Notes: generated by a model not told the origin, from the sequence alone. A stretch of 64,000 nt of DNA from Candidatus Nanoarchaeia archaeon (GCA_035289605.1 DATDWR010000022.1:45295-109294); one strand, 5' to 3'; counted from the stretch's first letter, positions 1-34,486 are shown. Made by a program: numbers and translations.

Positions 1-488
1 AGTAGCTTGTCTTCTACTTTTCCTGCAGATACTGATGTTATTAGGTCTTTCATTGGTATTCCAGCATCTGCTAGTGCTAGTGATGCTGCTGTTATTCCAG
101 CGCACCTTGTTCCTGCATCTGTTTGTATTAGTTCTATGAATACATCTACAACTGCTCCCGAGTAGTCGCTTAAGTCAAGCATTGGCAGTAATGCTTTTTC
201 TGTCACTAGAGAAATTTCTTTTGACCTCCTGTTTCCTCCAGGTCTTACTCTTTCTCCGCTTCCTGAGAATGCTGTCATGTTGTATTCGCATCTTAGTATT
301 CCTTTTGTTGGGTCTTGCAGGAATGCCGGATACAACTCTTTTGGGCCGTATACTGCTGCTATTGCTACTGTGTTTCCGACCTTGAACATTGCGCTGCCAT
401 TTGCCCTAGGAACAACTCCTACCTTTACTTCCATGGGCCTTAGCTCATCAAATTTTCTTCCGTCAAATCTTTTATTGTAAGCTACCAC
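1..488 (-). CDS. rrp41: Exosome complex exonuclease Rrp41 (RNase PH-like), N-terminal part; gene continues beyond window start
   Basis: Reverse-complement translation near 420-480 gives ...NKRFDGRKFDELRPMEVKVG..., the conserved Rrp41 N-terminal motif. No in-frame ATG, so a GTG start near 486-488 overlapping the Rrp4 stop is likely. Position is as expected downstream of Rrp4 in the archaeal superoperon. Confidence 0.7.
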   Translation of the reverse strand, partial: MVAYNKRFDGRKFDELRPMEVKVGVVPRANGSAMFKVGNTVAIAAVYGPKELYPAFLQDPTKGILRCEYNMTAFSGSGERVRPGGNRRSKEISLVTEKALLPMLDLSDYSGAVVDVFIELIQTDAGTRCAGITAASLALADAGIPMKDLITSVSAGKVEDKL

Positions 489-1173
489 TTTCTTTCTCCA
501 AGTATTCTTTTATCCTATCAGTAAGTCCTGACATGAAGCTTTCTTTTTCTATTTTCTTTATCGTCCTTACAGCAAGATCTTCTTTGTAAACATTATCGCC
601 GCTTATCCATATGAAGCCGTTTTGTCCTACAGAGATTTTGCACCCTGTGTATTCTTTTATCAGGTTTATCATGCTTCCTTGTTTTCCTATTACTCTCGGC
701 ACTTTTGTGCTTCCTATTTTTATTATCCTTCCTTCTCCAAGCTTTCTGAGTCCTGGTCCTTTTATTGAAAGGTCTATGATTTTCATGCTTGCAATATTTA
801 CTATCTGTGCCATTATGTAGTCTCCATGGCTTAGGTATTTGCTTAGGTCTGCTCCCTTTGCTATGTAGTCTGAGCTTGCATCTTTGATTGATAGGTTTGC
901 TTCAAATGCCCACCCTATGTCTACTCTCCATCCGCTTAATCCTATAGAAGTTACCTTTCCTATTACTATATCATCTCTTTTTGGTACATAAGGTCCTGTT
1001 AGTGGTACAAGCTTGATAAGTCTTCCGCTTAAGCTTGCCATGCCTACTTTTGTTGCTATGAGCTTTTCCTTTTCTCTTATTATGTCTTCTCCAGGCAGAT
1101 ATTCCATGCTTTCTGCTATTACTTGTCCTGGAACTACAAGTTCCTTGTCATTGATCATTATTCCCTGTGTCAT
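472..1173 (-). CDS. rrp4: Exosome complex RNA-binding subunit Rrp4 (S1 + KH domains)
   Basis: 233 aa. N-terminal S1-like segment and C-terminal KH-like segment (…KQGSMINLIKEYTGCKISVGQNGFIWI…). Conserved neighbourhood PsmA-SBDS-Rrp4-Rrp41. Confidence 0.85.
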   Translation of the reverse strand: MTQGIMINDKELVVPGQVIAESMEYLPGEDIIREKEKLIATKVGMASLSGRLIKLVPLTGPYVPKRDDIVIGKVTSIGLSGWRVDIGWAFEANLSIKDASSDYIAKGADLSKYLSHGDYIMAQIVNIASMKIIDLSIKGPGLRKLGEGRIIKIGSTKVPRVIGKQGSMINLIKEYTGCKISVGQNGFIWISGDNVYKEDLAVRTIKKIEKESFMSGLTDRIKEYLEKESGSLQ

Positions 1174-1871
1174 TTTTTCTTTAGTATGCTTATCTCAACT
1201 GTGCCTTTTGTTAATCTATTTAAATCTACCTCTAGTTCTTCTTGCAGTCCTGCGGGTATTTCTAGCATTACGCTTAAGCTGCCGTCGTTTTCCCATCTTT
1301 CGCTTATTAGCTTTCCATAGTGTTTTAATGTGTTGAATGATTTTCCTGCATACTGTGGTGCTACTCTTATTCCAAGCTCTCTTATTTCATATTTTATTGG
1401 CAGGATCTTTTTAAGCCCGTCTATTACGTCTTTTACTTGCTGCTCTGCTGGTTTGTTTTCTACTCTTATTTTCGCTTCTGCTATTGCATTTTCTATTCTT
1501 TGCGGAGGATGCGGCTTTCCTGTGTTCGGGTCTACTGTGCTTCTGTGCACCAAGTTGACTACTTGTTTTCTTGTCTGTTCAAGTTCCTTTCTCAGCATTT
1601 CTGCAGTTATTTGCACAATTCCATTTTTTACTATAGTTTTGCATATCTCTAGTTTGTCGTCTGTGCCGAATAATTTTTCAAGGTCTTTTTCAGAAGCCCT
1701 TAACCCTTTTTTTGCATCGCTGTAAATCTCTTCGCTGACAACAACATCTGTTATAGAAATATTTTTTCCTGCTTTGAAGTCTGCTGCATTTTGTGGATCA
1801 ACTAGAATCTCAAAGTCTTTTCCTTCTTTTCTTGCCTTCGCTATTACTGCTTCATTTACATTCCTGATCAT
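1170..1871 (-). CDS. sdo1: SBDS/Sdo1 family ribosome maturation protein
   Basis: 233 aa. N-terminus MIRNVNEAVIAKARKEGKDFEILVDP… is typical of the archaeal SBDS family. Conserved position between psmA and rrp4. Start overlaps the rrp4 stop by 4 nt. Confidence 0.85.
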   Translation of the reverse strand: MIRNVNEAVIAKARKEGKDFEILVDPQNAADFKAGKNISITDVVVSEEIYSDAKKGLRASEKDLEKLFGTDDKLEICKTIVKNGIVQITAEMLRKELEQTRKQVVNLVHRSTVDPNTGKPHPPQRIENAIAEAKIRVENKPAEQQVKDVIDGLKKILPIKYEIRELGIRVAPQYAGKSFNTLKHYGKLISERWENDGSLSVMLEIPAGLQEELEVDLNRLTKGTVEISILKKK

Positions 1872-1878
1872 ATCGCAT

Positions 1879-2604
1879 TCAGACCTTTTTGGCCAATTTT
1901 TTTAAGGATTCCTTGTCTAGTCTTCTAAATTGCCTGTCGCTTGTTTTTATGTAAGCCCCGTCTATTCTGTCTGCATCAAAGTCTTTTCCGAATACTCTCT
2001 TGAATGCACTGACTGCAAGCTTCATTCCCTGCTCGAGGTTCATTTCCGAATCATATTCTTTTTCTAGTATTTCTTTTAGTTGTGTTTCTGCTTCGCCTAT
2101 AACTGTTGCCTTGTACTGGAAATATATTCCTGTTACGTCTGTTACGTAAAGCTGCGGGCCCTCATCATCTACTCCTGCAAATAGTATGCTCACTCCGAAT
2201 GGTCTTGCTCCTCCGAACTGTGTGTAAGCCTGTTTCATGTTTGCTATGTCTTTGACTAGAGAAAGTATGTCCATTGAACTGTCATATGTTACCTTGTATT
2301 GTTGTGCTATTAGCTGTGCTCTTTCTATTAGAACCCTTCCGTCCATCAAGTATCCTGTTGCGCTTGCTCCTATATGGTCGTCAACCTGGAATACTTTTTC
2401 TATGCTTTGCCCTATCATTAGTTTTTCTAGAATTCTTTTGTCTGCTAGTAATAATACTCCGTCTTTGCATACTATTCCTAAGGATGTTGTGCCTTGCCTG
2501 ACTGCTTTTTTTGCATATTCTACCTGAAGCAGTCTTCCGTCTGGGCTGAACATTGTGCTGCTCCTGTCATATCCCATCATTTGGTGTGTTATTGTTGGCT
2601 GCAC
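1879..2604 (-). CDS. psmA: Proteasome alpha subunit
   Basis: 241 aa. …YDRSSTMFSPDGRLLQVEYAKKAVRQGTTSLGI… is the proteasome alpha signature. Confidence 0.9.
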   Translation of the reverse strand: MQPTITHQMMGYDRSSTMFSPDGRLLQVEYAKKAVRQGTTSLGIVCKDGVLLLADKRILEKLMIGQSIEKVFQVDDHIGASATGYLMDGRVLIERAQLIAQQYKVTYDSSMDILSLVKDIANMKQAYTQFGGARPFGVSILFAGVDDEGPQLYVTDVTGIYFQYKATVIGEAETQLKEILEKEYDSEMNLEQGMKLAVSAFKRVFGKDFDADRIDGAYIKTSDRQFRRLDKESLKKLAKKV

Positions 2605-2951
2605 TATGATGCACCTCTATGCAGAAATTTGGATCTGGATTTGTTTATCATTCCTGAAGCTCCTAAGCTCCTAAGAAGAATGTCTTCTTTATTAATCTTT
2701 CTCACGAAGCAGAAGCTCGCCCTCAAATGGTCTAGATATTTGTTGTTTAGTTTTATTACTCCCCTGTTTTTCTGGAATTCTAAAAAGTTCAAGTTTGCTT
2801 TTGATAGTGTAAAGTTTCCGAAGTATTCTCTAAATTTTTCAGTTACTTCTTCTTTAAGTTTCTTGTATTCTATGTTGCCTTCGCTTATTACTTCATACAC
2901 TAGGTATCTTTTCTTTTCTCTTAAGCTCGGCTTCAGCAATTTTTGTTTCAT
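2604..2951 (-). CDS. rnp2: RNase P protein component 2 (Pop5-like)
   Basis: 115 aa basic protein immediately upstream of psmA, with a 1-nt overlap. This is the conserved Pop5 position in the superoperon. N-terminal …REKKRYLVYEVISE… resembles Pop5. Confidence 0.55.
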   Translation of the reverse strand: MKQKLLKPSLREKKRYLVYEVISEGNIEYKKLKEEVTEKFREYFGNFTLSKANLNFLEFQKNRGVIKLNNKYLDHLRASFCFVRKINKEDILLRSLGASGMINKSRSKFLHRGAS

Positions 2952-2988
2952 AATTTCACAAAGATATAATATTTAGTTTATCTTCTTC

Positions 2989-5900
2989 TCACAATTTTTT
3001 TGTACTGTTATAGGATTTATAAGCCTTTGGGTAGTTGTATGGTATGTATCTTAGGTGTGGCAGAGTATTGTCTTTTTTCGGCCTTCTCCACTCCGTAAAG
3101 AATACTAGTGCGATTATTATAGTCATTAATAGCAGGAAGTTTAGTCCGTCTATTATTGGAAGCTTGACATCTATTGCAGGATTTATTTTTATTGGACCTT
3201 TTGTTGTTAATTTAATGTCCAGTTTTGGAACAGTTATTCCTCCTGTTGCATTCACGAATCTTATTAGTATCTCGCCTATGCCTTTTGTAGTGTTTAGTAT
3301 TAGGTCATATGATCCTCCTTCTCCTTTTGTGGAGTGTATTATTATAGCTCCTTCTTCAGTTTCTATTATCTTTGTCCCTTCAGGTATTTCTGCAGGTTTT
3401 TCAGGTTCTTGTGGTTCTTGCTGTGGTTCTTCTTGTAATGGTATTTGAGGTTTGGCATCTCCTCCTCCATTTCCATTTCCGCCACCTCCTCCTCCGCCTC
3501 CTTCACCGCCTCCTGATACTGGTGTTTCCTCGCTTGAATATGTAGTAAAGGTGTTGACTGAAAATGTAAATATGCCGCTCGAGTAGCTTATCTCTGTACA
3601 GCTTCCGCAGAAATCATAGGATCCGCTGTCCTGCAAATCTATTAATGGTCTTGGGTTTGTGAATGTTAGGCTGTTTATTGTTATATTAGCGCTTGTATTA
3701 AACGCCCAAGCTGCTGTGCTGTTCACCCTTACGAAATTGCTGTTTATTGCTATGTTTCCCGTAGTGTTTATAGCATTTTCTTTTGTGATGTTTACTGTAA
3801 TATTTTCATATCTTATGCTTCCGTTTTCGTTTCTTAGTGTTATATTTATGGCTGTAAAATTTGTATAGTTAATATAATATAGAAGCCCACTTGTTATATT
3901 AGTTAGTGTTGTGCCGTTTGCTCCTGCAAGATAGAAATCATATGATGTTGCATTTATTATTAAATCAGAGTAATTGGCATTTGTTGTGTCTACTGCATAT
4001 ATTCCTTTTCCTTCTTGTCCTGTAGATAGCAGAGTGCTGGATGTTATGTTTGTGCTTTTGGTTCCTGTTCCAAAGATTATTGCACTTGCATTATAGCCTG
4101 TGCTTTCAAATTTATTGTTGTTTATCCTGTTCTGGTTCGCTACATCTATATATAATATGTGGGAATTATTATTGTAGGTTGTTAGGTTATTGTCGCTTAT
4201 ATTATTCCTTAGTGTGCTTGACCTGAGGTATATTGCAGAAGATTCTACTCCTAATGTTGTTATGTTATTTGATATTATGAGATTTCCGCTGCTCTGCATC
4301 CTTATTCCGTGTGATGGCAGTCCAGTGCTTGTTGCACCTTCTGTGTAAATTATATTTTCTGTAACATTGTTGGCTCCTCCATCTCCGTTTAAGTCCAGTC
4401 CTGAAGTTATTGTAGTAGCGTAGCTGCGTATAACATTCTTAGTTATATTGTGATGAGAGACTCCAGTTAGCGCCAATGTGACAGTTGTAGAGCCAAACGA
4501 AGTTAGATTATTGAATGCTATGTTATTGTCCGCTATTGATCCTGAAGTTGACTGTGAAGCAAGTATCGCTTCTGCTGTTCCTCCAAATGTGGTTATATTA
4601 TTAGACAGAATGTTGTTAAATCTTGTCTGTCTTAATAGGTTTATGCCTTCTGCATTGCTTCCTGCAAGGGTTGTAAATGTAAAAATTATATTGTTTGTTA
4701 TGTTATTATAATCAGAAAAGAAGTTTGTTGATCCTATTCTATTTCCGGAAATTTTTATTCCAGCTGCACTTGTTCCGTTTGTCTCTATTTTGTTGTAAGA
4801 AATATTGGAGTTGCCGGTTTGGTTTAGCATTATTCCTGCACCATTAGTGAAGTTAATTAGAATTGTATTATTAAACACAACGCTGTTTGACGAATGATTC
4901 AATACTATACCATTCCTGAAATAGCTTACATTGCAGTTTTTGATGTAGCTGTCGCTTATGTTGTTAAACCATGCCCCTACTCCTGTTGTGTGGTTTCCAA
5001 GTATTTCGTAGCCGTTACAGTCAAATACTATGCTGCTGGCATTCAATATTATTCCGTCGCCATTGCATATATTTCCTCCTGTGCTGTTTATTATTCCTGC
5101 ATCTAGTGATATGTTCGTTGCTAAGTAGCTTCCGCATGTCAAATTTATTGTTGTGTAGTTGCTCAGTCCTGTAACATTAAAAATTCTCGGATTGTTGGAA
5201 ATTTTGTTGCAGCTTGGAGGTCTGCACTGCACATTATTTCTTAGGATAGTATAAGCATCTGTAGAGCTTGAGTTTGCATCATTGAATGTTATTGTTATTG
5301 AAGTGCTCCTGTTGTATATTTCTGAATTGTTTAGTATATTTGCATTGTTGCTGGTAAAATCTATGTCATTGGTTGTGTTGGACATGGTGTCAGATTCTAG
5401 TAATGTCATGTTAATTAAATTGATGTTTGTTGTTGAGTTTCCTAAGCTCAGATTATAGAATGTAGAATAAGACTCAACAATTGTTATCTTGCTGACTAGA
5501 TGATTGTCTAAAAATGTTATGTTTATTGATTTATTCAAGTAAATGTCTATTTGGCTGTTGTTTGATATTGTGTTGTTGGAGAAGCTAGCATTAGTCAATG
5601 CGCCTAGTGCAACACCGTAAGTGTTGTTGTATATTGTTGTGTTTATTATTGTTAGATTATACAAGTTTATCATTCTGGAGTTTATGCCGTAGAGTGAGCT
5701 TGTTATGTTGCAGTTTCTTATGAGCGTATTATTAAATCCTCCATCTATTAGTATGCTGCTGTTTGCGCTTGTCCCGTTTCCTTCTATTCTATTTCCCTGG
5801 CAGTCTAAAATAATATTGTTAGCTTTTATGTTTATGCAACTTCCATGTGAAGTTATATTGCTAGTTAGTTGTATTAAATTATTTGCCGTTGCTGCTGCAC

Positions 5901-6030
5901 TGTCACAGCTGCTACAAGTATCGCATGTTGCTGCTTCTGCATTAGCTGCTAGAATTAATATTAGAGAAAACAAAATTGTTGCAACTATATAAAATCTGTT
6001 CTCAGTTGTTAATTTATTTAAATTTATCAT
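2989..6030 (-). CDS. Giant cell-surface glycoprotein SP1: N-terminal signal/anchor, parallel beta-helix-like NxT/S-rich repeats, Gly-rich and P/E/Q-rich linker, C-terminal TM anchor
   Basis: 1013 aa. Hydrophobic N-terminus FYIVATILFSLILILAANAEA. Dozens of N-x-S/T sequons in short beta-helix-like repeats. Gly-rich tract GGGEGGGGGGGGNGNGGGDAKP followed by a P/E/Q-rich linker PQIPLQEEPQQEPQEPEKP. C-terminal helix LLLMTIIIALVFF followed by basic residues. Confidence 0.7.
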   Translation of the reverse strand: MINLNKLTTENRFYIVATILFSLILILAANAEAATCDTCSSCDSAAATANNLIQLTSNITSHGSCINIKANNIILDCQGNRIEGNGTSANSSILIDGGFNNTLIRNCNITSSLYGINSRMINLYNLTIINTTIYNNTYGVALGALTNASFSNNTISNNSQIDIYLNKSINITFLDNHLVSKITIVESYSTFYNLSLGNSTTNINLINMTLLESDTMSNTTNDIDFTSNNANILNNSEIYNRSTSITITFNDANSSSTDAYTILRNNVQCRPPSCNKISNNPRIFNVTGLSNYTTINLTCGSYLATNISLDAGIINSTGGNICNGDGIILNASSIVFDCNGYEILGNHTTGVGAWFNNISDSYIKNCNVSYFRNGIVLNHSSNSVVFNNTILINFTNGAGIMLNQTGNSNISYNKIETNGTSAAGIKISGNRIGSTNFFSDYNNITNNIIFTFTTLAGSNAEGINLLRQTRFNNILSNNITTFGGTAEAILASQSTSGSIADNNIAFNNLTSFGSTTVTLALTGVSHHNITKNVIRSYATTITSGLDLNGDGGANNVTENIIYTEGATSTGLPSHGIRMQSSGNLIISNNITTLGVESSAIYLRSSTLRNNISDNNLTTYNNNSHILYIDVANQNRINNNKFESTGYNASAIIFGTGTKSTNITSSTLLSTGQEGKGIYAVDTTNANYSDLIINATSYDFYLAGANGTTLTNITSGLLYYINYTNFTAINITLRNENGSIRYENITVNITKENAINTTGNIAINSNFVRVNSTAAWAFNTSANITINSLTFTNPRPLIDLQDSGSYDFCGSCTEISYSSGIFTFSVNTFTTYSSEETPVSGGGEGGGGGGGGNGNGGGDAKPQIPLQEEPQQEPQEPEKPAEIPEGTKIIETEEGAIIIHSTKGEGGSYDLILNTTKGIGEILIRFVNATGGITVPKLDIKLTTKGPIKINPAIDVKLPIIDGLNFLLLMTIIIALVFFTEWRRPKKDNTLPHLRYIPYNYPKAYKSYNSTKKL

Positions 6031-6548
6031 CTATTCCTCTTTTTTTTGGAGTTGTTGTATGCGGTCCAAACAGTCCTGTCATCTCTTTTGATGGCTAGCG
6101 CAATTTCGTGATAGCTAAATCTGAGATTTTCTTTTAAGTAAACAACAAGCGATTCTAGGGCAGATAACTCTGAATCTGCAAGAATTGCTACAGGTATTTG
6201 TATAGAATTTTTATCAATCGAAAGTTTTGATTTGTGTTTTTTCTTTGAATTGTCGAATGCATGCCAGATGTTTCTTTGGTCTCTTTTGAGCAGCCTAGAA
6301 ATATCGCATAGTGGAATATTACTTTCTTCTTTTAAGTATTTTACAACAGATTCTAGCACTGTTAATCTTTTGTTGAGAATTGAAACAGGAAAGCTTGCTT
6401 CCTGCTGTATTATCTGCAGTATTTCTTCATGCGATAAGCTATGCTTCTCTTTTAATGTAGAAATTAATTCTTTTATTTTTTTAATACTTAGTATATCATT
6501 CTTGTCTAATGCTGGATTAGTATGCCTAAAACCAGGTTTTTCCATCAA
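6027..6548 (-). CDS. Small DNA-binding protein with tandem sigma-70-region-4-like HTH repeats (HTH1)
   Basis: 173 aa. Two internal repeats, …LESVVKYLKEESNIPLCDISRLLKRDQRNIWHAFDNSKKK… and …LESLVVYLKENLRFSYHEIALAIKRDDRTVWTAYNNSKKKR…. The pattern LSYxEIA…TV…A.KK matches ECF sigma region 4. Stop overlaps the SP1 start by 4 nt. Paralogous to 27265..27828. Confidence 0.6.
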   Translation of the reverse strand: MMEKPGFRHTNPALDKNDILSIKKIKELISTLKEKHSLSHEEILQIIQQEASFPVSILNKRLTVLESVVKYLKEESNIPLCDISRLLKRDQRNIWHAFDNSKKKHKSKLSIDKNSIQIPVAILADSELSALESLVVYLKENLRFSYHEIALAIKRDDRTVWTAYNNSKKKRNR

Positions 6549-6570
6549 TTAATAGATTAAACAGAGTTTA

Positions 6571-6642
6571 AATAATTTACGTATTATATAAGTATAAAAA
6601 GCTTAATAAAAAATAATTTTACGTATTATATAAGTATAAAAA
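6571..6642. promoter_or_regulatory. Two copies of a ~30-bp direct repeat carrying the inverted repeat TACGTA-N5-TAAGTA plus TATA-like sequence, upstream of HTH1
   Basis: aataatttacgtattatataagtataaaaa at 6571-6600 and again at 6612-6642, with a 41-42 bp period. These lie 28-95 nt upstream of the HTH1 start. Same 6-5-6 palindrome type as the array at 27079-27260. Confidence 0.45.
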
Positions 6643-6643
6643 T

Positions 6644-7138
6644 TTAGACAAAATTGCAGAGGCTTAAAGCATAATCTGCTTCATTTCCAGTCATCCCCAT
6701 AATCCTAAGTAAGCTCAAGAAATCTATTCTTCCTATCATCTGATATTTGTTTGAGGCAAAGCTGAAGAAGAAAATTTTTACTTTGTATTTCCTGCACAGT
6801 TTTATGCTTTTCATAACCCAGTTTAGTTCTATATTTGAATTAATTTTGTTAATGCTGAAAGCCACAGCAATTTCATTTTTCCTTGCAGCCTCGCACATTA
6901 TGTGATCAAGTCCTATTCTGTCTGTTGAATATGTATCTTTTTTTCCAAATAAATGAGGGTTAAGCAGTAATTTTATTCTTTTGTTTTCTATTAAATTTCT
7001 TGCTTCCGAATATGTTTTTGCTTCCTGCATTCCAAACTTTTTGATGTCATCTTTGAAGTAAATTTTTGAGTATCCTAAAAGCTTAGCAAAGTTTTTAGTG
7101 TCACTATTCTCTTCCATTAATGTGATATCGCAAAACAT
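6644..7138 (-). CDS. rnp3: RNase P protein component 3 (Rpp30/Rpp1-like, short form)
   Basis: 164 aa. C-terminal …KLCRKYKVKIFFFSFASNKYQMIGRIDFLSLLRIMGM… resembles the Rpp30 TIM-barrel C-terminus (…KYKVRRFLTSSA…DLISLGVVIGM…). Sits in the superoperon neighbourhood. Confidence 0.55.
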   Translation of the reverse strand: MFCDITLMEENSDTKNFAKLLGYSKIYFKDDIKKFGMQEAKTYSEARNLIENKRIKLLLNPHLFGKKDTYSTDRIGLDHIMCEAARKNEIAVAFSINKINSNIELNWVMKSIKLCRKYKVKIFFFSFASNKYQMIGRIDFLSLLRIMGMTGNEADYALSLCNFV

Positions 7139-7190
7139 TATTTAATCTTGTTTAGTAAGGTTTATAAATATTATTTAAGGTACTCATTGA

Positions 7191-7898
7191 ATGGAACCAA
7201 CAAATAATAAGGTACCTAAGCATATTGGGATCATTCTTGATGGAAATCGTAGATTTGCTAAAAGATTAATGTTAAAACCACTTAAAGGCCACGAATGGGG
7301 TTATGAAAAAATAAAGAAGATAATGGAATGGTGCAAGGAGTTTAATATAAAGGAGCTCACATTATATACATTTTCTATTGAAAATTTTGACAGGCCTAAG
7401 AAAGAGTTTGATTATCTTATGAAATTATTTGTAAGGGCATTTAAAGAATTGAAGAATGATTGGAATAAAATAAAAGAACTTAAAGTAAGATTTATTGGCA
7501 GAATCTTCATGTTTCCTGAAAAGGTTCAGCAGTCTATGAAAGACTTGATGGAATCCACAATTAATAATGGGCCTTATACTTTGAACTTTGCTATGGCTTA
7601 TGGCGGAAGGGCTGAGATTGTTGATGCCACTAAAAAGATTGCGCAGCAGGTTAAGGAAGGAAAGCTTGACATTGACAATATCAATGAAGAAAATTTTAAG
7701 AAAAATCTGTATTTGGATTCAGATCCTGATCTTATTATTAGAACTTCAGAATCAAGGTTGTCCGGATTTTTACTGTATCAAGGAGCATATTCTGAAATTA
7801 TTTTCCTGCCTGAGAAATTATGGCCTGAATTTGAGAAGGAAGATTTTGTTAAATGCTTGGAAGAATACTCTAATAGAGAGAGAAGGTTTGGCAAGTAA
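7191..7898 (+). CDS. uppS: cis-prenyltransferase (undecaprenyl/dolichyl diphosphate synthase)
   Basis: 235 aa. HIGIILDGNRRFAK and the remainder are the classic UPPS family signature. Confidence 0.85.
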   Translation: MEPTNNKVPKHIGIILDGNRRFAKRLMLKPLKGHEWGYEKIKKIMEWCKEFNIKELTLYTFSIENFDRPKKEFDYLMKLFVRAFKELKNDWNKIKELKVRFIGRIFMFPEKVQQSMKDLMESTINNGPYTLNFAMAYGGRAEIVDATKKIAQQVKEGKLDIDNINEENFKKNLYLDSDPDLIIRTSESRLSGFLLYQGAYSEIIFLPEKLWPEFEKEDFVKCLEEYSNRERRFGK

Positions 7899-8721: not shown

Positions 8722-10254
8722 CTAACAAGCACTATATTTATTTAATTGTTGTGGTACATAGTCTTTAGAATATATAGCATATACATTCCCAACACTATCA
8801 ACATCAACATCAGTAATTAAACCGTCTGGACCATATGTATTATTTTGAGGGAAAAAAACTTCATTTTTGACTACTGTAGTTACATATTTCCCATTATTGT
8901 CGAATTTCCACACAGCACTCTTTGACCTATCTGCAACAAATAAGGCTTTATCTTGTGCTTTTGATGCAGCTAGTTTCAGATTACGAGACGAGAATTTCTC
9001 ACTTTGTGGTCCTGTAAGTGCATAAAGCAGTTGATTGGCTGGTGATATTTTTATTACTCTGCTTTCTCTCCAAGGAACTACATTAAAATTGAATGTTGAA
9101 GCTACATAAAGCCCTTGAGGGCTAGTTTGTTCAAAAATTAAGGACATTGGATAAACACTTGTGGTTGTTGGAACAACTGTCTTCAAATCAAAGCTAGGCA
9201 ATTCCTGTCCTGCAGCAGTAAACATGAATACTTTGTCGCTGAATGCTACTGCGAAGTCTCCATTAGATTTAACATTCATAACAAATCCTCCAGCATTATT
9301 ATGTGCTTTCTGCACAAATGGAGTCAGAGTTTTGGTTACAGTGTTAAACTTAGCGACATAAAAAGTGCCGGATTTTGCATATGCTAAATACAGGTTATTC
9401 GCTGGTGCGTTAAATACTCTTGGACTGTATATTCCAGGCAATGCTTGGGTGTATTTTATAGCTCCTAGGTTATTAGCTAAGGCATCATATGCTGTTAATA
9501 CTAAATTAGGAGAATAAGATATCGGTTGTATAACAACATAAAATTTGTCCCCGCTTATTGTAAAATCCTTGCCTTCACCATTTAGCGCTATATCTTTCAA
9601 TAAATCTCCTGTATCACTTTTAAATAATCTTAATTTATATCTTGTTAACATCGCACTCAATGTAGGACCTATCTGCATAAATTTATAGCTATACTGTTCT
9701 CCAGTGTCTTTAGAGTAGATTTGTGAATATAGTTTAGGTGAGCCATCGTTATTTGTTAGTAATGTCCCTGAAGAATCTTTGCATTGTCCTATGCATCTAG
9801 ATGGTTGGGAAGTAGAAGTTGTGCTAAGGCATCCGTTTGTACACTTCTGGCTTTTTGTTGCAGGGCATGTTGCGCCTGTTTTAGAAGTTGATGTTGTTAT
9901 TAGTGTATTATAGTCTGTGCATGTTATTCTTTCTTTACAGTCATTTGTTGGCTGTGTTGTTGTTTTTTGCTTACTGCAAGTCCCGCCTATCGAAGCGCTG
10001 CAAATGTATCCAGCAGGGCAGGTTCCTTGTTTGCCTGGTCCTCCAGTGCACTTCTGTGTTGATGTATGAAAGAATTCTCCTGTGCTTTCTTCTACACTCG
10101 AATCTCCTAAAAAATTATTTCCTGTAAGTATTAATGCAAATGCTAAGACTAAAACTCCTGCAATAACAAGATATTTGTTAGAATTATTAGTAGATTTCTT
10201 TAATTCCATTTCTGTAACTATTTCACCTCTAACATTTTTTAGGTTGAAAGGCAT
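8722..10254 (-). CDS. Secreted/membrane-anchored Cys/Thr-rich protein with C-terminal beta-propeller-like (NHL-type) repeats
   Basis: 510 aa. N-terminal TM helix YLVIAGVLVLAFALILT. Cys- and Thr-rich stalk. Repeated beta-strand-rich segments, e.g. GPDGLITDVDVDSVGNVYAIYS. Confidence 0.5.
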   Translation of the reverse strand: MPFNLKNVRGEIVTEMELKKSTNNSNKYLVIAGVLVLAFALILTGNNFLGDSSVEESTGEFFHTSTQKCTGGPGKQGTCPAGYICSASIGGTCSKQKTTTQPTNDCKERITCTDYNTLITTSTSKTGATCPATKSQKCTNGCLSTTSTSQPSRCIGQCKDSSGTLLTNNDGSPKLYSQIYSKDTGEQYSYKFMQIGPTLSAMLTRYKLRLFKSDTGDLLKDIALNGEGKDFTISGDKFYVVIQPISYSPNLVLTAYDALANNLGAIKYTQALPGIYSPRVFNAPANNLYLAYAKSGTFYVAKFNTVTKTLTPFVQKAHNNAGGFVMNVKSNGDFAVAFSDKVFMFTAAGQELPSFDLKTVVPTTTSVYPMSLIFEQTSPQGLYVASTFNFNVVPWRESRVIKISPANQLLYALTGPQSEKFSSRNLKLAASKAQDKALFVADRSKSAVWKFDNNGKYVTTVVKNEVFFPQNNTYGPDGLITDVDVDSVGNVYAIYSKDYVPQQLNKYSAC

Positions 10255-18862: not shown

Positions 18863-21800
18863 TCACTTTTTTAGTTTAACTCTATAATGTTTTTTTGCTT
18901 TTATTGCATCTAAATCTACATTGTATTTATTGTGCGCCAGTATAAGTGCTATCATTAGTAGTAACGCGCCGCTGGCAGTTATTAATGAATAGAATATTAA
19001 TTTTTTTGTGTTGAATCTTCCTCCTGCATATTCTTTCGTCTCTAGTTTGCTGTATTCAGTTTTTGTTTCTTCTTCAGCTGGCTCTTTTCTGCGTTCTATT
19101 CCTACCAAATATAAACTCAATTTGTCGCTTTGTGCTGTATATTTCAGATTTCCGTTTTCTTCTCCATTATAATTAGTTTTTTTAGCAACCCATTTGCTGC
19201 CTTCCAGCCTGAATAATTTTATGTCATTAGGGCTGGCTTTATTATTTGTTATAAACTTCTTTTCTACTAAGAAAACCATTTCTATATCCTTAGCTTCTAT
19301 AGGTTGTATTTGGTTGGTTTGTGATTTGACAGCAAGTATTTCAAATGCTTTGTAAACAATATAATTTTCACTTTCTACATTTTTTTTGATGACCTGCAAT
19401 TTTATTCCCTCTATGTCAATGGACGGTTTGAAGGAGATTTCCATGATGCCTAACTCCCTGTTTTCAGGCTTGTAATTTATTGTAGATCCTCTTTTCGCGT
19501 TTTCTATATTTAAGACATTGGAAGCAGGAGGTAATGATCCTCTTTGTCCTCCGCCTCCTGAGCTTCTTCCTCCGCCTCCTCCATTTCCTTCACTGCTTTT
19601 CGCAGCAGATGTTGAGGGCTCAAACAACCATTCAGTAGCGCACCCGCTGCTTGAAAAGCTAGTATCTATAGTCTCGACGCACCAGAAATATTTTTTGCTG
19701 TTGTCTAATCCCAATGTTATATTACGCATCTGTTGCATGTTGCCGAAGGTGCCTGCTGCTGGTTTGCTTGAAAAACCGAAAACTTCGCTGATCACATCTC
19801 TCGCGCCAGATGAGGATCCTATTCTTAGTCTGTAATACAATCCGTCATTAGGTGTTTCAGTGTCATTTCCTGAAGTCCAGCTGAAATTTATAATATTATC
19901 TGAGTGGTCTATGAAGAAAAGTTGAGGCCTGTTTGGTCTTGTATTCGTATTCTCAATTTTATTTGTGTAAACAAAAGATCTTGCTTGAGAGGAAGTGTTT
20001 CCTGTCAGTATCATGTCCAGCTTTGTGTCGTTGTTTAAATCCATCAATAAAAGCACTGAAAAGTCCAGTGCTGTTAAATTATTGTTTAATGAGCTGTTTG
20101 AAGCAAAGCTTGTGCCGTTGTTTGTGTAAATTTTGGTGATTATGTCTGTGCCTGAACAGCTGGATCCTGTGTTGCATCCTGCTACAGCAAGATCAAGTTT
20201 GCCGTCATTGTTTACGTCGCCCAATTGTGCTTCTCCTCTGGCTGCAGTGTCAAGATCAACTTCCCATGTGGTGTTTCTTACAAAGCCGCTTCCGTTATTC
20301 TGGTAAATAATTCTGAATACAGTTCCGTTGTAGCCGTACCATGCAAGGTCCATGTCCCTGTCATTGTCTATGTCTCCGGATGCTATTGATGCCAATGCTG
20401 ATACAAAATTAACGCTCCATGTGCTGTTTGTCACATAGCTTGTTCCGTTGTTTTCATAAAACTGAGAGAATGGTCCCGAACCGCAATTAGTTGATTCATC
20501 ATTTGTTGATGGGCATCCTGACATGACTAAGTCTAAGTCATTGTCGTTGTCAGCATCTGTAAAAATGCTTGACCCGAATGCAAGGAATGTTATATTATTT
20601 GAGTAAGTATTGTTATAAATGAAAGAAGTTCCGTTGTTTGTGTAAACACCGCCGCTGGAGCTTGGGCAGGAAGTTGAGTTGCATCCTGTAATAAATAAGT
20701 CTATTAGTCCGTCTTCATTGATGTATCCTAATTGCACATTGCCTAAATACAAGTCTGTAGCATTCATTCCCCAGACTCTGTCTTCTGCAAAGCTTGTGCC
20801 GTTGTTAAGGAATACTTGTGTGTATATTGTTTTGTTTGCATCTCTTCCCATAGCAACAAGGTCTGTGTCTCCGTCCCTGTCTATGTCAGCTAACGCTCCT
20901 GAAGGTTGCCCGAGACCAGTTAGGTTTATCCCCCAGCTGTTGTTGACAGCGAGTGCAGTTCCATTATTGATGAACACCTTTCCGAAGCAGTCAGCGCTTC
21001 TGTTTACAGCATAGTCTGTGCAGCTGGAGCTGTCTCCAAAGATTATGACATCATTATAGCTGTCATTGTTTACATCGCCTCCTATTATTGCTCCCTTGAA
21101 TAATGCTGTTAGATTGTCTCCGAACGTGAAATTTTGCAGGAAGAATATATTTATTATGCTTGTAGTTATGTTGATGCTGCTGTTGGCCAGCGCATCGTTG
21201 CTTATGTTTACTCTGATTCCTGCTGTATAGTTTCCTATGGACTTGCTTGCTACTTGTAGTGTTGTCTCAAAGCTTGTTCCCCTTCCGGCAATGTTCCTTA
21301 TTGTAAAATTTGTGCTTGTATCATTAAACATTGCTGTGTCAGCGTTGTTGAAGTTAAATACGTAAACTGTTATGTTTTCTGTCTGGTTTCCGTCTCCGTC
21401 ATTTCTTATGGTTATTGTATAGCTCGTATTTGTGTCTGAATCTATAGTTTTATCAAACAAGTTGGTGCTCACGTTTAATTCTTTTAAATTCAGCAGGCTG
21501 ATCCTGGGCAGGTAGTCATTGGTCACGTTTTTGGCTGTGGTGTTTGTTACATTTACAGGTATGTCGCAGAAATCATTAGTGTTTATATCTAAGCATCCTT
21601 CTATCGGCCTGTCAAATTCCTGCCATAAGTTTCCTCCGCCTTCAGATGATGATGTGTTCCAGCTGTTGTTAAATCCGTCATCTATTATATTGCTTTTGTT
21701 TGTGAAGTTGTTCATGAATATCAGGCTGTTGTTTGTTCCCTTGTCCAAAGTTATAGTGTACCCAAAACATTTGGAAAATGTGTTATTATACATTCTGTTT

Positions 21801-23926
21801 TGTAGTGATCCTTGGCCTGCTATGCAGTCCCCGCCTCCATCGCCTGTGATATTTACATATATAGTATTAAGATAAATGCTGTTATTGTTTGCATTCTGTA
21901 TTTTTATTGCATCGCCTCCTCCTGAAAGCTTGTCTGAATTTGTCATTGTTATATTATTGTTGAAAAGAGAATTATTATTTGAATCTTGAAGCCATACGCC
22001 TATGTCTGTTCCATTAACCCCTATAATATTAGAAATTATATAAGTGTTATTAGAGCCTGTCTGCAGGTATATAGCGTGGCTCGTATTGTCTGTTCCGTTT
22101 ATTTTGTTGAATGTTATGTTATTATATAATGCCTGGCTTGTTGTAATTGCGTAAAAGCGTCCAGACTTTAGTCCTGTTGATATGCTGAAGTTATTGTTGT
22201 TTATTACTGTAAAGCTGGTGTTGCTTACTAGTTCTATAGCTGCCAGGCCTGTACTGCTGGAAGTATACCTTGTTATGTTAAAGAGATTGAAGCTGATATT
22301 AACATTTCTTGAGTTGGAGATGGATGCTATTCCGTATAATATATTGTTGTAAACTAAGTTATTGTCTGCCCTGTTTTGCATTCTTATGGTTATGTTGTTG
22401 CTGTCTATCATATCTATGGTGTTGTTCTCTGCAGTGATATTTCTAGAACCGTCTATGTCTATTCCTAGTCCTTTTCCTGCTATTGTATTGTTTGATATTG
22501 TTATGTTGGATCCGCTGACTTCTATGGCGCTGTCTGCTGTTGTTATTAGTGTTGACATGTTTATCACGTTGTATCTTAGCAGGCTGTTGTTCATGGCTGG
22601 TGATATAATCACTCCATTGGTATTGTCTCTTGTGACTATTAGTGTGTTGTTCTCAAAAGTGTGGTTTGTTCCTGATACAAACCTTACAAGATATCCTCCT
22701 GAAGGGTCTGAATTCGTGCTGAATATCTTATTATGCTTCATGACGCTGTGGTTGTTGTCTATTGATATGCCACTGGTGGTTGTTCCTGATGTTCCTGAGC
22801 CTATAGATGTAAAATTGGAGTTTACAGCATTAAATGTCGTGTTGGGATTTACTTCTATATAATAATTTTTAGTTCCGTCAGCTGTTAATGATGTCAATCT
22901 ACTGTAATTTATGCTTAGGTTGCCGTAATTTTGCAGGTAAAATTCTCCTGTGCTTGAGCTGTTGAAGTTTAATGACACATTGTAGATATTTAGTTCTCCT
23001 CCTGCTATGACTTTTATTATTGCTGTGGATATTACGAATCCTGTGGCATTGTCATAATTAAAAAATCTCGTGTTGTTGATTTCATTGTGTAGTGTCTGCA
23101 TTGTATTTCCTTTGCCTGTTACCTCTATTGTGCTTCCTGACAGGACACTCGGGTCTATTGTTACTGGAAATGAGAGTTGTTCAAACGGCGTGTCAATGAA
23201 CAGGTCAAGAAATAAGCCGTTCTCATTGGACCTGATTGCATATCTTGTATCTACTCTTCTTGGTGCTAGAACATATTGTATTATATCTCCTGATGAATTA
23301 GTTGTATTTATGGTATAGTTGTCATATCCGTATGGCTTGACTATTTCTAATGCCCTGATGTTTCCTATGCTTGTTCTTAAAACAACAGAGCCATGAGAAG
23401 ATGTATAGTTCAATGTATTTGTAACAATTTTGAAAGTAAAATTTCTAGGTGCTGTTCCATTGTGTAATGTTATTGTTTTTCTTATGCCGTATGGCAGAAC
23501 TTCATATTTTATGTCTGTGGCATTATAGGCATTATAGTAAGTTATTGTATTGTCTGTAACGTTTACACTAGTGATATTGTTATTGTTTATGAACTGCATT
23601 GTGATATTTCTTGAGGTTGATAATACTATTGCCTTTATTGTAAAGAATGATTCGTTCACGTCAACAGAGTCATCAAAATCCAGCGACAAAAATCTGCCCA
23701 GGCTGGCATTATAATTCATAATGCCTCCAGCTGATAATGTGGTATTGGCAGTTGCAGCTCCGAATCCCTGATATAGCGTTGATTGGCCGTAAACTGTTAG
23801 AGTGCTTATGATTAAAAAAAATAGGAATAAGAGAGCTAGGTATATTAGTGATTTTTTGTTGTTTGCATTGGCTTTCGTATTGTCGCAGTGCATTCCGCCT
23901 TTTTGATTTTTTATTTTCTTGCTCAT
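18863..23926 (-). CDS. Giant cell-surface glycoprotein SP3: signal anchor, beta-helix repeats, FG-GAP (integrin-alpha-like) repeats, Gly-rich linker, C-terminal TM anchor
   Basis: 1687 aa. N-terminal TM LIYLALLFLFFLIISTLTVYG. Very dense N-x-S/T sequons. Repeated DxDxDGxxD FG-GAP-like units (DIDRDGDTDLV, DADNDNDLDLV, DIDNDRDMDLA, DVNNDGKLDLA). Gly-rich linker GNGGGGGRSSGGGGQRG. C-terminal helix LITASGALLLMIALILA followed by a basic tail. Confidence 0.7.
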   Translation of the reverse strand: MSKKIKNQKGGMHCDNTKANANNKKSLIYLALLFLFFLIISTLTVYGQSTLYQGFGAATANTTLSAGGIMNYNASLGRFLSLDFDDSVDVNESFFTIKAIVLSTSRNITMQFINNNNITSVNVTDNTITYYNAYNATDIKYEVLPYGIRKTITLHNGTAPRNFTFKIVTNTLNYTSSHGSVVLRTSIGNIRALEIVKPYGYDNYTINTTNSSGDIIQYVLAPRRVDTRYAIRSNENGLFLDLFIDTPFEQLSFPVTIDPSVLSGSTIEVTGKGNTMQTLHNEINNTRFFNYDNATGFVISTAIIKVIAGGELNIYNVSLNFNSSSTGEFYLQNYGNLSINYSRLTSLTADGTKNYYIEVNPNTTFNAVNSNFTSIGSGTSGTTTSGISIDNNHSVMKHNKIFSTNSDPSGGYLVRFVSGTNHTFENNTLIVTRDNTNGVIISPAMNNSLLRYNVINMSTLITTADSAIEVSGSNITISNNTIAGKGLGIDIDGSRNITAENNTIDMIDSNNITIRMQNRADNNLVYNNILYGIASISNSRNVNISFNLFNITRYTSSSTGLAAIELVSNTSFTVINNNNFSISTGLKSGRFYAITTSQALYNNITFNKINGTDNTSHAIYLQTGSNNTYIISNIIGVNGTDIGVWLQDSNNNSLFNNNITMTNSDKLSGGGDAIKIQNANNNSIYLNTIYVNITGDGGGDCIAGQGSLQNRMYNNTFSKCFGYTITLDKGTNNSLIFMNNFTNKSNIIDDGFNNSWNTSSSEGGGNLWQEFDRPIEGCLDINTNDFCDIPVNVTNTTAKNVTNDYLPRISLLNLKELNVSTNLFDKTIDSDTNTSYTITIRNDGDGNQTENITVYVFNFNNADTAMFNDTSTNFTIRNIAGRGTSFETTLQVASKSIGNYTAGIRVNISNDALANSSINITTSIINIFFLQNFTFGDNLTALFKGAIIGGDVNNDSYNDVIIFGDSSSCTDYAVNRSADCFGKVFINNGTALAVNNSWGINLTGLGQPSGALADIDRDGDTDLVAMGRDANKTIYTQVFLNNGTSFAEDRVWGMNATDLYLGNVQLGYINEDGLIDLFITGCNSTSCPSSSGGVYTNNGTSFIYNNTYSNNITFLAFGSSIFTDADNDNDLDLVMSGCPSTNDESTNCGSGPFSQFYENNGTSYVTNSTWSVNFVSALASIASGDIDNDRDMDLAWYGYNGTVFRIIYQNNGSGFVRNTTWEVDLDTAARGEAQLGDVNNDGKLDLAVAGCNTGSSCSGTDIITKIYTNNGTSFASNSSLNNNLTALDFSVLLLMDLNNDTKLDMILTGNTSSQARSFVYTNKIENTNTRPNRPQLFFIDHSDNIINFSWTSGNDTETPNDGLYYRLRIGSSSGARDVISEVFGFSSKPAAGTFGNMQQMRNITLGLDNSKKYFWCVETIDTSFSSSGCATEWLFEPSTSAAKSSEGNGGGGGRSSGGGGQRGSLPPASNVLNIENAKRGSTINYKPENRELGIMEISFKPSIDIEGIKLQVIKKNVESENYIVYKAFEILAVKSQTNQIQPIEAKDIEMVFLVEKKFITNNKASPNDIKLFRLEGSKWVAKKTNYNGEENGNLKYTAQSDKLSLYLVGIERRKEPAEEETKTEYSKLETKEYAGGRFNTKKLIFYSLITASGALLLMIALILAHNKYNVDLDAIKAKKHYRVKLKK

Positions 23927-26292: not shown

Positions 26293-26490
26293 ATGATTAT
26301 TCCAATATGTTGTCTGGGCTGCGGCAAACCAGTAGCTCATTTATATGAGGATTTTAAAGATAGAACTTCTAAAGGAGAGCATCCTAAGAAAGTAATGGAT
26401 GAATTGGGTTTGGAAAGGTATTGTTGCAGGGCTTTGTTTATGGGCCATGTTGATCTTCTTGATACTGTGGCTAAATTCAAGAAAGCATAA
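26293..26490 (+). CDS. rpoN: DNA-directed RNA polymerase subunit N (Rpb10 homologue)
   Basis: 65 aa. MIIPICCLGCGKP…LGLERYCCRALFMGHVDLL is the RpoN zinc-bundle signature. Confidence 0.85.
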   Translation: MIIPICCLGCGKPVAHLYEDFKDRTSKGEHPKKVMDELGLERYCCRALFMGHVDLLDTVAKFKKA

Positions 26491-27078: not shown

Positions 27079-27260
27079 TACTTACATAATAAGTATATAT
27101 TACTTACTTATTAAGTAGATAAAACATAATAATAAATATAAATACTTACATAATAAGTATATAATTTTTTAATTTAATTATATATAATATTAAATGATTA
27201 TTACTTACAAAATAAGTAAAATAGATAAATTTATATATAAAATTACTTACTTAATAAGTA
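27079..27260. promoter_or_regulatory. Array of five inverted-repeat operators TACTTAC-N3-(A/T)TAAGTA (6-5-6 palindrome TACTTA-N5-TAAGTA) plus TATA box upstream of HTH2
   Basis: Units at 27079-27095, 27101-27117, 27143-27159, 27202-27218 and 27244-27260. TTTATATATA sits at about -35 to -26 from the ATG. The last unit lies between the TATA box and the start codon. Confidence 0.5.
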
Positions 27261-34231: not shown

Positions 34232-34486
34232 TTGAATACCAATATGACAACAAAGACAATTAAGAGTGTAGATGATGAGGTTTGGTATAAATTTAGGTTT
34301 CTTGCTGTTAAAAATAGGCTTGGAATGGGAAAATTATTGGGAGAGATGATAAATGAGTATGAATTTAAGTCAAAAGAATTTTGGAAAGAAATTCTAGAAG
34401 GTGAGAGATTATTAACAGACAAGGAAGCGTCTGAATTATTAAGCGAAATAAAAAAATCAAGAAAAGAGCATGGATTTAGAAAATGA
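34232..34486 (+). CDS. Putative antitoxin partner of downstream PIN toxin
   Basis: 84-aa small charged protein. Its stop overlaps the start of the PIN gene (ATGA). Fold not assignable from sequence. Confidence 0.4.
   Translation: MNTNMTTKTIKSVDDEVWYKFRFLAVKNRLGMGKLLGEMINEYEFKSKEFWKEILEGERLLTDKEASELLSEIKKSRKEHGFRK

Follow-up and report, generated by a model that had tools for sequence, protein, structure and literature searches.

A predicted family of tandem region-4-like helix-turn-helix regulators paired with surface-protein genes in Woesearchaeota and Nanoarchaeota genomes

A stretch of 64,000 nucleotides (nt) from Candidatus Nanoarchaeia archaeon (GCA_035289605.1 DATDWR010000022.1:45295-109294), referred to as the window, carries two gene pairs in which a small helix-turn-helix (HTH) gene overlaps the gene of a large predicted surface protein. 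These pairs are HTH1 with SP1 and HTH2 with SP2. We consider it reasonably likely that each HTH protein is an autoregulating, single-chain, pseudo-dimeric transcription factor that works with the surface protein encoded beside it. The fold of the HTH proteins, their gene linkage and fusions, the arrays of operator-like sites, and the protein-DNA covariation were computed in this analysis. The operator arrays at both HTH genes and the covariation of the recognition helix with the half-site are the strongest functional evidence, and both were missed by an earlier model-made reading of the same DNA, the first-pass annotation.

Two overlapping gene pairs

The features of the two pairs are as follows; lengths are in amino acids (aa).
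2989-6030, minus strand: SP1 gene, 1013 aa.
6027-6548, minus strand: HTH1 gene, 173 aa from TTG; an ATG lies one codon on, at 6545.
6027-6030, minus strand: ATGA shared by the HTH1 stop codon TGA and the SP1 start codon ATG.
6036-6040, minus strand: Shine-Dalgarno-like AGAGG, 5 nt ahead of the SP1 ATG, within the HTH1 KKKR codons.
27265-27828, plus strand: HTH2 gene, 187 aa.
27800-27804, plus strand: Shine-Dalgarno-like AGAGG, 4 nt ahead of the SP2 ATG, within the HTH2 KKKR codons.
27809-33250, plus strand: SP2 gene, 1813 aa, with a 20-nt overlap with HTH2.

The open reading frames (ORFs) and the ATGA overlap of HTH1 and SP1 described in the first-pass annotation were reproduced, with 6027-6030 shared, and so was the recurrence of the arrangement at 27265-33250. 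HTH1 and HTH2 are paralogues by sequence comparison (39% identity over 152 aa, E 9e-36), and no third HTH copy was found in the window by tblastn. The KKKR at the C terminus of the HTH proteins is conserved. SP1 and SP2 show no similarity (best E 0.007 over 68 aa), and therefore the recurrence of the pair is not a recent segmental duplication, as had already been supposed.

Fold of the HTH proteins

HTH2 matches the Pfam family Sigma70_r4_2 (PF08281) with 35.1 bits (E 1.1e-8) and passes the gathering score of 25.7, and HTH1 alone remains under it with 14.4 bits (E 0.031). Matches to PF08281 were obtained for 25 of 26 aligned family members, accompanied by weaker matches to HTH_23, HTH_38, and HTH_11, and the sequence profiles of the 26 members prefer Sigma70_r4_2 over GerE. 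The likeness to sigma-70 region 4 put forward in the first-pass annotation was thus borne out, with HTH1 alone sub-threshold.

AlphaFold2 gave confident two-HTH models of the tandem repeat, with a predicted local distance difference test score (pLDDT) of 88.9 and a predicted template modelling score (pTM) of 0.73 for HTH1, and values of 87.2 and 0.72 for HTH2. Both models consist of two N-terminal helices followed by two copies of a short strand and three helices. The cross-alignment of HTH1 with HTH2, the family alignment, and the models agree on two clear repeats of ~57 aa, and repeat 2 of one paralogue also aligns to repeat 1 of the other. The sole two strands in the models lie one at the start of each repeat, at an IPxSIF motif, and they appear to pair with each other, which would fit a pseudo-two-fold HTH arrangement. 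The earlier count of 2.5 internal repeats stands for the two full repeats; the extra N-terminal half repeat is weakly supported. The N terminus of HTH1 scores 6.7 bits on a hidden Markov model (HMM) of the single repeat, in the range of shuffled controls, which reach 8.8, and more than 10 bits were reached by the N termini of 4 of 29 family members versus 0 of 580 shuffles.

Single repeats superpose on SigD4, SigR4, SigC4, and SigE4-DNA at 0.5-0.9 Å (Foldseek). Full-length Foldseek matches are weak (E of at least 0.011), and only the single-repeat matches to sigma region 4 are meaningful. A search of PDB sequences with the family profile gave no significant relative (best E 0.35). Sigma70_r2 is not listed for HTH1 or HTH2 in Pfam at E <= 10, nor does it appear in the 25 Pfam families with the most matches across the 26 family members. 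NCBIfam sigma models reach 14-26 bits against cut-offs of 136-323. The N-terminal helices and the two region-4-like repeats account for the whole HTH protein. Judged by sequence and model, HTH1 and HTH2 are tandem sigma-70-region-4-like HTH proteins, and because they have no sigma region 2, they are no sigma factors. The surprise expressed in the first-pass annotation at a sigma-like protein in an archaeon was overstated, since the Tfx/EnfR proteins are known, Woesearchaeota 'sigma-70' genes have been reported, and region 2 is lacking here.

The Pfam domain TFX_C has no match in HTH1, HTH2, or the 26 family members, which have a second HTH instead. Neither HTH1 nor HTH2 combines a transmembrane (TM) segment with its DNA-binding domain; both are soluble and encoded by separate genes. 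No catalytic domain was found anywhere in the family of 125-370 aa. In HTH1, the recognition helix is a variant in repeat 1 (KRDQRNIWHAF) and canonical in repeat 2 (KRDDRTVWTAY), and in HTH2 it is canonical in both repeats (DRT[IV]W).

A word-indexed search returned 184 relatives, all unnamed or 'hypothetical', and one source calls a homologue 'transposase'. In the full HMMER scan the family comprises 2,239 clusters at 50% identity, and E is 1e-30 or lower for 1,195 of these. Among GTDB species representatives a relative is encoded at 321 loci, of which 80 were kept for the locus analyses and 78 had enough downstream sequence. The kept loci are labelled Woesearchaeota, Nanoarchaeota, Nanoarchaeia, 'archaeon', or 'uncultured Methanosarcinales', and the family was found only in Woesearchaeota/Nanoarchaeota genomes among them. 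About one third of the related loci come from metagenome-assembled genomes (MAGs) labelled 'uncultured Methanosarcinales archaeon' that carry the same Woesearchaeota-type module, and these labels may be wrong. The family is multicopy in several genomes.

Operator-like palindromes and helix covariation

A palindrome of 17 base pairs (bp), TACTTA-N5-TAAGTA, is arrayed upstream of HTH1, HTH2, and homologues in other genomes. The copies at the two HTH genes of the window are listed below.
6578-6594, minus strand: HTH1 proximal operator-like site, TACTTATATAATACGTA, asymmetric, its gene-side half-site being the variant TACGTA.
6620-6636, minus strand: HTH1 distal operator-like site, TACTTATATAATACGTA, identical to the proximal site and 42 bp from it.
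27079-27095, plus strand: HTH2 operator-like site 1, TACTTACATAATAAGTA, symmetric.
27101-27117, plus strand: HTH2 operator-like site 2, TACTTACTTATTAAGTA.
27143-27159, plus strand: HTH2 operator-like site 3, TACTTACATAATAAGTA, 42 bp from site 2.
27202-27218, plus strand: HTH2 operator-like site 4, TACTTACAAAATAAGTA, immediately ahead of the TATA-like element.
27230-27239, plus strand: TATA-like tttatatata of the HTH2 promoter.
27244-27260, plus strand: HTH2 operator-like site 5, TACTTACTTAATAAGTA, 42 bp from site 4, downstream of the TATA-like element and upstream of the ATG at 27265.

The HTH1 proximal site is centred at about -41 from the ATG and has a TATA-like spacer. With one mismatch allowed, the palindrome gives 16 strand-matches in the window versus 1.02 expected (maximum of 5 in 100 shuffles), and seven of its eight sites lie upstream of the two HTH genes. 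The 80 related loci were searched with the pattern TACTTAC-N3-GTAAGTA at up to 2 mismatches. The 600 nt upstream of the HTH start make up 4% of this sequence and hold 108 of the 128 sites. At least one site is present at 38 of the 80 loci and at least two at 27, and the centre of the proximal site falls within 42 nt of the start codon at 20 of 32 loci. The spacing between sites has modes at ~21, 42, 53, 63, and 74 bp; many of these come from within-locus duplications, and helical phasing is therefore not claimed.

At one locus of a Nanoarchaeota MAG (L016), ~11 motif copies lie within 600 nt upstream of the HTH gene (4313-4696). A RIO-type kinase gene 5.5 kb from there is preceded by a second array of 7 copies, partly in direct repeats of ~53 bp (9470-9890). 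The kinase gene may be a further regulon member. One site was also seen at the equivalent place of another locus (L024).

Every repeat was aligned to the single-repeat HMM, the start of the recognition helix was read off, and repeats were classed as canonical ([DEN]RT[IV]W), Asn variant ([RK]N[IVM]W), or other. Two canonical repeats are present in 39 modules, 26 of which have sites, and all 26 have the symmetric TACTTA-N5-TAAGTA. Modules with one Asn repeat, HTH1 among them, have only asymmetric TACTTA-N5-TA[CT]GTA sites (17 of 17). The position of the Asn repeat in the protein is mirrored in the DNA. When it is repeat 1, the variant half-site is gene-proximal (9 of 9), and when it is repeat 2, the variant half-site is distal (8 of 8). 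The occurrence of the Asn variant in either repeat implies that at least two lineages are probably involved.

The half-site centres are 11 bp apart, which is one helical turn, and half-sites of dimeric HTH proteins of the same superfamily are likewise one turn apart. The simplest reading is that one polypeptide would occupy each 17-bp site with one repeat per half-site and repeat 1 on the proximal one, and that Thr or Asn would select A or C/T, respectively, at base 3 of the half-site. Thr with TAAGTA and Asn with TA[CT]GTA is apparently a code, a predicted specificity rule of one residue to one base.

Gene linkage, surface proteins, and fusions

A partner was defined as a same-strand ORF of at least 100 aa that starts between -75 and +30 nt from the HTH stop codon. 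Such a partner follows the HTH gene directly at 70 of the 78 loci, overlaps it in 65 of these 70, and shares an ATGA with it (-4 overlap) in 24 of 70. Half of the partners (35 of 70) have a Shine-Dalgarno-like motif ahead of the start. An N-terminal anchor was called from a hydrophobic 19-mer with a Kyte-Doolittle value of at least 2.0, and the other ORFs of the same loci served as background. By this measure 58 of 70 partners (83%) are anchored versus 35% of the background. Partners that are large, that is at least 700 aa or running off the locus, number 38 of 70 (54%) versus 10%. At least 30 of 70 (43%) have 1000 aa or more, with many exceeding 3300 aa, and a second group has only 150-460 aa.

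The HTH genes are linked to membrane-anchored or secreted proteins that are often, but not always, giant. Thus, the tie to the following gene seen in the first-pass annotation extends across relatives, its anchored partner was recovered, and its size of more than 1000 aa applies to about 43% of cases. The link is also wider than the co-transcription that had been envisaged, because reversed gene order and true fusions exist. A giant gene may precede the HTH gene with a 4-nt overlap, or a giant gene, the gene of a 418-aa anchored protein, the HTH gene, and another giant gene may follow one another. The length of the HTH protein was also compared with the position of the partner anchor; this association is weak (Fisher p = 0.04, not independent) and was not relied on.

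SP1 has a signal-like hydrophobic segment at the N terminus, right-handed beta-helix/NosD repeats, and a C-terminal TM helix followed by a basic tail of 35 aa. SP2 begins with a conserved, cytoplasmic, coiled-coil-like N-terminal domain of ~93 aa and crosses the membrane with one TM helix (about aa 94-114). Its large extracellular part contains a Gly-rich region and two Laminin_G_3 domains. N-X-S/T sequons are about two to three times as frequent as expected from composition, with 63 in SP1 (6.2 per 100 aa versus 3.1) and 93 in SP2 (5.1 per 100 aa versus 1.7), a richness that would fit N-glycosylated surface proteins.

The N-terminal domain of SP2 belongs to a coiled-coil-like, non-hydrophobic domain of ~90-100 aa common to 33 partners including SP2, and behind this domain come one TM helix and a short [IP]TG[FY] motif. 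The total lengths of these 33 partners range from 187 to >3300 aa, and their extracellular parts differ. A cytoplasmic N-terminal domain with a single TM helix would by analogy give the SP2 class the topology of a bacterial anti-sigma factor. In the indexed database, a search for homologues of the SP2 N-terminal domain returned just a single close one, a fragment. A short conserved [IP]TG[FYLM][AV][VI] lies a few residues past the N-terminal TM helix in most partners of any size (PVGFVV in SP2). This motif may mark a site of processing, or it may form the first strand of a shared stalk.

Fused forms of the module were also found. Among the best 150 matches in the representative search, 16 proteins of 650-5919 aa have an HTH module at or near the C terminus. 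In the nine that were read (P0130, P0131, P0134, P0135, P0147, P0149, P0153, P0162, and P0264), a conserved extracellular domain is followed by a hydrophobic helix of 14-17 residues, a poly-Lys/Arg stretch, and four HTH repeats. Lys and Arg make up 7-9 of the 12 residues past the helix in the four fusions computed. The extracellular regions span 800 to >5000 aa. P0130, P0135, P0149, and P0162 begin with the SP2-type cytoplasmic domain and end with the HTH module, and consequently both of their ends are predicted to be intracellular. In these four and in P0147, a DNA-binding domain and a TM segment are present in one chain. The ORF of P0130 is unbroken on two independent contigs. Upstream of the fusion genes the same type of palindrome occurs, with the proximal copy abutting the ATG.

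The conserved extracellular domain of the fusions ends in AQxYSTxxxGxWTI right before the hydrophobic helix. The C terminus of SP2 (33100-33250), which ends in AQIQGSYVGNYTMECSAAS, looks similar exactly where the fusions run into the TM helix and HTH module. This likeness hints that split and fused forms may interconvert. Soluble relatives of 270-370 aa (P0121-P0129 and others) were seen as well, many of them with two complete modules, that is, four HTH repeats. Four-repeat proteins, including the fusions, might span two operators at once, in keeping with the arrangement of the operators in arrays.

Proposed mechanism and alternatives

In the mechanism that we favour, a single-chain pseudo-dimer with two region-4-like domains would bind one TACTTA-N5-TAAGTA operator, with repeat 1 reading the gene-proximal half-site and repeat 2 the distal one. 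The operator arrays lie over or just upstream of the module's own core promoter (two sites at HTH1, five at HTH2). The HTH protein would thereby autoregulate a bicistronic, translationally coupled operon that encodes itself and a membrane-anchored, sequon-rich surface protein. The placement of sites between the TATA-like element and the start codon points to repression when occupancy is high, and sites just upstream of TATA could serve activation. Cross-talk between modules would be possible because the TACTTA half-site is common to HTH1 and HTH2. DNA binding, the sign of regulation, co-transcription, tethering, and any signal are what we infer from the computed features; for the DNA-binding and autoregulatory part, we regard the prediction as highly probable.

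The most likely mechanism for the surface protein's share is that its cytoplasmic segment or segments tether or sequester the HTH protein. The state of the surface protein would then feed back on transcription of its own operon and of paralogous ones with the same operator, and the state sensed could be assembly, load, host contact, or proteolysis. This step is proposed because fused forms exist and because the cytoplasmic domain and the pairing are both conserved, and we put it forward tentatively, at slightly less than even confidence. A bolder extension, which we hold to be rather doubtful, treats the giant surface proteins of Woesearchaeota-type DPANN archaea as transmembrane receptors wired straight to transcription. 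Their cytoplasmic ends would hold the HTH module in the split form or be covalently joined to it in the fused form. Host contact, mechanical load, or proteolysis at the C-terminal hydrophobic/poly-basic segment would free or reposition the module, which would then switch its own and paralogous surface-protein operons via the shared TACTTA-N5-TAAGTA operators.

Several observations weigh against parts of the favoured mechanism. SP1 has no conserved N-terminal cytoplasmic domain and only the 35-aa C-terminal tail, which places it in another partner class; owing to this different topology, a physical link or tether is least supported for the HTH1-SP1 copy. No anti-sigma domain was found in SP2 in Pfam or NCBIfam. 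The hydrophobic helix ahead of the fused HTH module is short, with 15-mer Kyte-Doolittle values of 1.65-2.1. The split between symmetric and asymmetric sites has a Fisher p of 2.4e-12 with kinship ignored, and 13 of the 39 loci with two canonical repeats (RT/RT) have no pattern-matching site. Finally, the array at the RIO kinase gene of L016 means that the regulon is not strictly the module's own operon.

A simpler account is that the HTH protein is a plain, dedicated transcription factor of its own operon, without any physical or signalling tie to the surface protein, and that the gene overlap merely secures co-expression. This is essentially the view of the first-pass annotation. Operator arrays and covariation require DNA binding only, SP1 lacks the conserved cytoplasmic domain, and many partners are small secreted proteins, all of which this account accommodates. 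It does not explain why the HTH module was repeatedly and independently fused to the cytoplasmic C terminus of giant surface proteins, why the cytoplasmic N-terminal domain is kept in 33 partners despite differing extracellular parts, or why the pair stays together across several gene orders, and we regard it as unlikely. Alternatively, the module at the membrane might anchor its own gene and thus aid the co-translational insertion of very long surface proteins without any regulation. The fusions, which put a DNA-binding module at the membrane, the sites at the module's own gene, and arrays that reach 11 sites within the 600 nt ahead of the HTH gene (L016) agree with such tethering of the locus. 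Many partners are small, however, the HTH proteins of split forms are soluble, including those of this window, and initiation should be affected in any event by sites that overlap TATA and the transcription start, so that this proposal is very unlikely.

Two further explanations start from what the HTH proteins resemble. Secondary Pfam matches to the transposase-type HTH_23 and HTH_38, together with the homologue named 'transposase', could point to a domesticated paired-like transposase DNA-binding domain, with the palindromes as terminal or recombination sites of a movable surface-protein cassette. The interruption of the p30 / Pop5-PsmA-SBDS-Rrp4 gene string by HTH1-SP1 and the several modules per genome are in line with a mobile element. 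The 125-370-aa family has no catalytic domain, though, and the motif occurs upstream of the HTH gene only rather than flanking the cassette, in sites that overlap the promoter and have a fixed orientation relative to the gene. We consider this origin of the palindromes extremely improbable. We give least credence of all to a true sigma-like initiation factor that recruits RNA polymerase to special promoters, even though the top sequence and structure matches are sigma region 4, the sites are near the core promoter, the gene pairing is like that of extracytoplasmic function (ECF) sigma/anti-sigma operons, and the label 'sigma-70 in Woesearchaeota' (PMC8204110) would suggest such a role. Sigma70_r2 was not seen in HTH1 or HTH2 at E <= 10 or among the 25 commonest Pfam families of the 26 members, the NCBIfam sigma models stay far under their cut-offs, and the two region-4 domains would read a palindrome instead of a -35/-10 pair. 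Moreover, the window is archaeal (RpoN, RNase P p30/Pop5, PsmA, and Rrp4), and archaeal RNA polymerase works with TBP/TFB.

Neighbouring genes in the window

The window is AT-rich, with a G+C content of 28-40%. Its archaeal genes include those for RNase P p30, Pop5, proteasome alpha (PsmA), SBDS, Rrp4, and RpoN (26293-26490), and no tRNA genes were found in it. A scan of 2500-7200 for bacterial sigma-70 promoters and intrinsic terminators was no better than shuffles, and such a scan is not applicable to archaea. On the minus strand (472-7138), HTH1-SP1 has the gene for RNase P p30 (6644-7138) on one side, and those for Pop5/Rpp14 (2604-2951), proteasome alpha (1879-2604), SBDS (1170-1871), and Rrp4 (472-1173) on the other. 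The break of this conserved archaeal gene string points to insertion of the module as a cassette.

A third giant, sequon-rich ORF (18863-23926, minus strand, 1687 aa) has FG-GAP and beta-helix/NosD repeats and hydrophobic segments at both the N and C termini. Upstream of it there is no HTH gene and no TACTTA-N5-TAAGTA site, which means that the regulator does not accompany every giant surface gene here. Two genes of predicted secreted proteins, one of 510 aa that is Cys/Thr-rich and has no Pfam match (8722-10254, minus strand) and a beta-helix protein of 635 aa (55876-57783, minus strand), are likewise without an HTH gene or operator. A Fic/DOC-family gene (33317-34171, plus strand) directly follows SP2. 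Next to it are two overlapping small genes (34232-34486 and 34483-34875, plus strand) that are antitoxin/PIN-toxin-like by sequence inspection only.

Implications

DPANN archaea live attached to host cells, and it is presumably through their very large, rapidly evolving surface proteins that they attach. To our knowledge, almost nothing is known about the regulation of these proteins. The present results define a family of >2,000 clusters, a predicted 17-bp operator, a specificity rule, and a fixed predicted binding orientation, and the Rosetta-stone fusions tie the regulator physically to surface proteins. An unexplained report of 'sigma factors in Woesearchaeota' would thereby become a concrete, testable circuit, and a large lineage-specific family gains a direct and testable connection to the surface proteins through which DPANN archaea would interact with their hosts. 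Gel shifts with synthetic DNA and metatranscriptomes that already exist would suffice to check the predictions, and no cultivation is needed. The operator could be used for regulon prediction in uncultured genomes, and the region-4 single-chain pseudo-dimer may represent a compact DNA-binding scaffold with an apparently readable code. If the receptor proposal were true, it would describe an archaeal analogue of sigma/anti-sigma or Notch-like signalling that chooses the adhesin displayed.

Comparison with known systems

The closest organizational parallel is provided by ECF sigma/anti-sigma operons such as RpoE-RseA, SigW-RsiW, and SigI-RsgI. In these, a region-4-type HTH protein is likewise encoded first, its gene overlaps that of a single-pass membrane protein with the N terminus inside, and autoregulation from sites at the own promoter is a common element, predicted in the present case. 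The ~90-aa cytoplasmic N-terminal domain and the variable extracytoplasmic part are shared with the SP2 class of partners. A single-pass partner of this kind directly follows the regulator for SP2 and 32 related partners, but not for SP1. SigI-RsgI is also similar in having several paralogous pairs per genome with different outside domains. Unlike ECF systems, the present family has no sigma region 2 and belongs to an archaeal host without a sigma-dependent RNA polymerase, and two region-4 domains are combined in one chain for a 17-bp palindrome. Its partners have no recognisable anti-sigma domain, and they can be giant and adhesin-like, small and secreted, or fused to the HTH module. Output domains of the LuxR/GerE/NarL type differ as well, since they act as homodimers of single-HTH chains with receiver or ligand-binding domains.

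Region-4-like HTH transcription factors are established in archaea with Tfx/EnfR, and the pseudo-palindrome bound by EnfR has its centre about 21 bp ahead of the target start codon (PMC10570040). Tfx proteins have one HTH and an acidic C-terminal alpha+beta domain, TFX_C, and form homodimers with an 'eighth note' architecture (PMC10570040). The Tfx family (EnfR/TON_1525, MTH0916; PDB 8hno) has the sigma-r4-like HTH in common with the proteins described here, whereas the latter have two HTH per chain, no TFX_C, and a tie to surface-protein genes.

Transmembrane transcription regulators are known in both bacteria and archaea, including ToxR, TcpP, CadC, and the archaeal ArnR/ArnR1 (survey PMC10269533), of which ArnR/ArnR1 regulate archaeal surface structures (PMC6396743). 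The terms DPANN, Woesearchaeota, and Nanoarchaeota are absent from the main text of that survey (PMC10269533). The fused relatives resemble these regulators in joining a DNA-binding domain, one or more TM segments, and an extracytoplasmic part in one polypeptide. They differ in that the HTH module is C-terminal and has four repeats and that the extracellular regions are 800 to >5000 aa long, and the copies in the window split the functions over two overlapping genes.

Castelle et al. (2021) reported that fam00359, classified as sigma-70, is prevalent in Woesearchaeota, with no anti-sigma factor found and a mechanism that was called unclear (PMC8204110). These are probably the same proteins as the present family. 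In that paper they were treated as sigma factors, and the tandem region-4-only architecture, the operator, and the surface-protein linkage were undescribed. The tandem architecture, the operator, and the coupling to surface proteins were not found described in the published literature searched. Set against these systems, the finding is a sigma-4/LuxR-type HTH regulator with sigma/anti-sigma-like or transmembrane-regulator logic and is not categorically new; the palindrome arrays and the helix covariation are new here.

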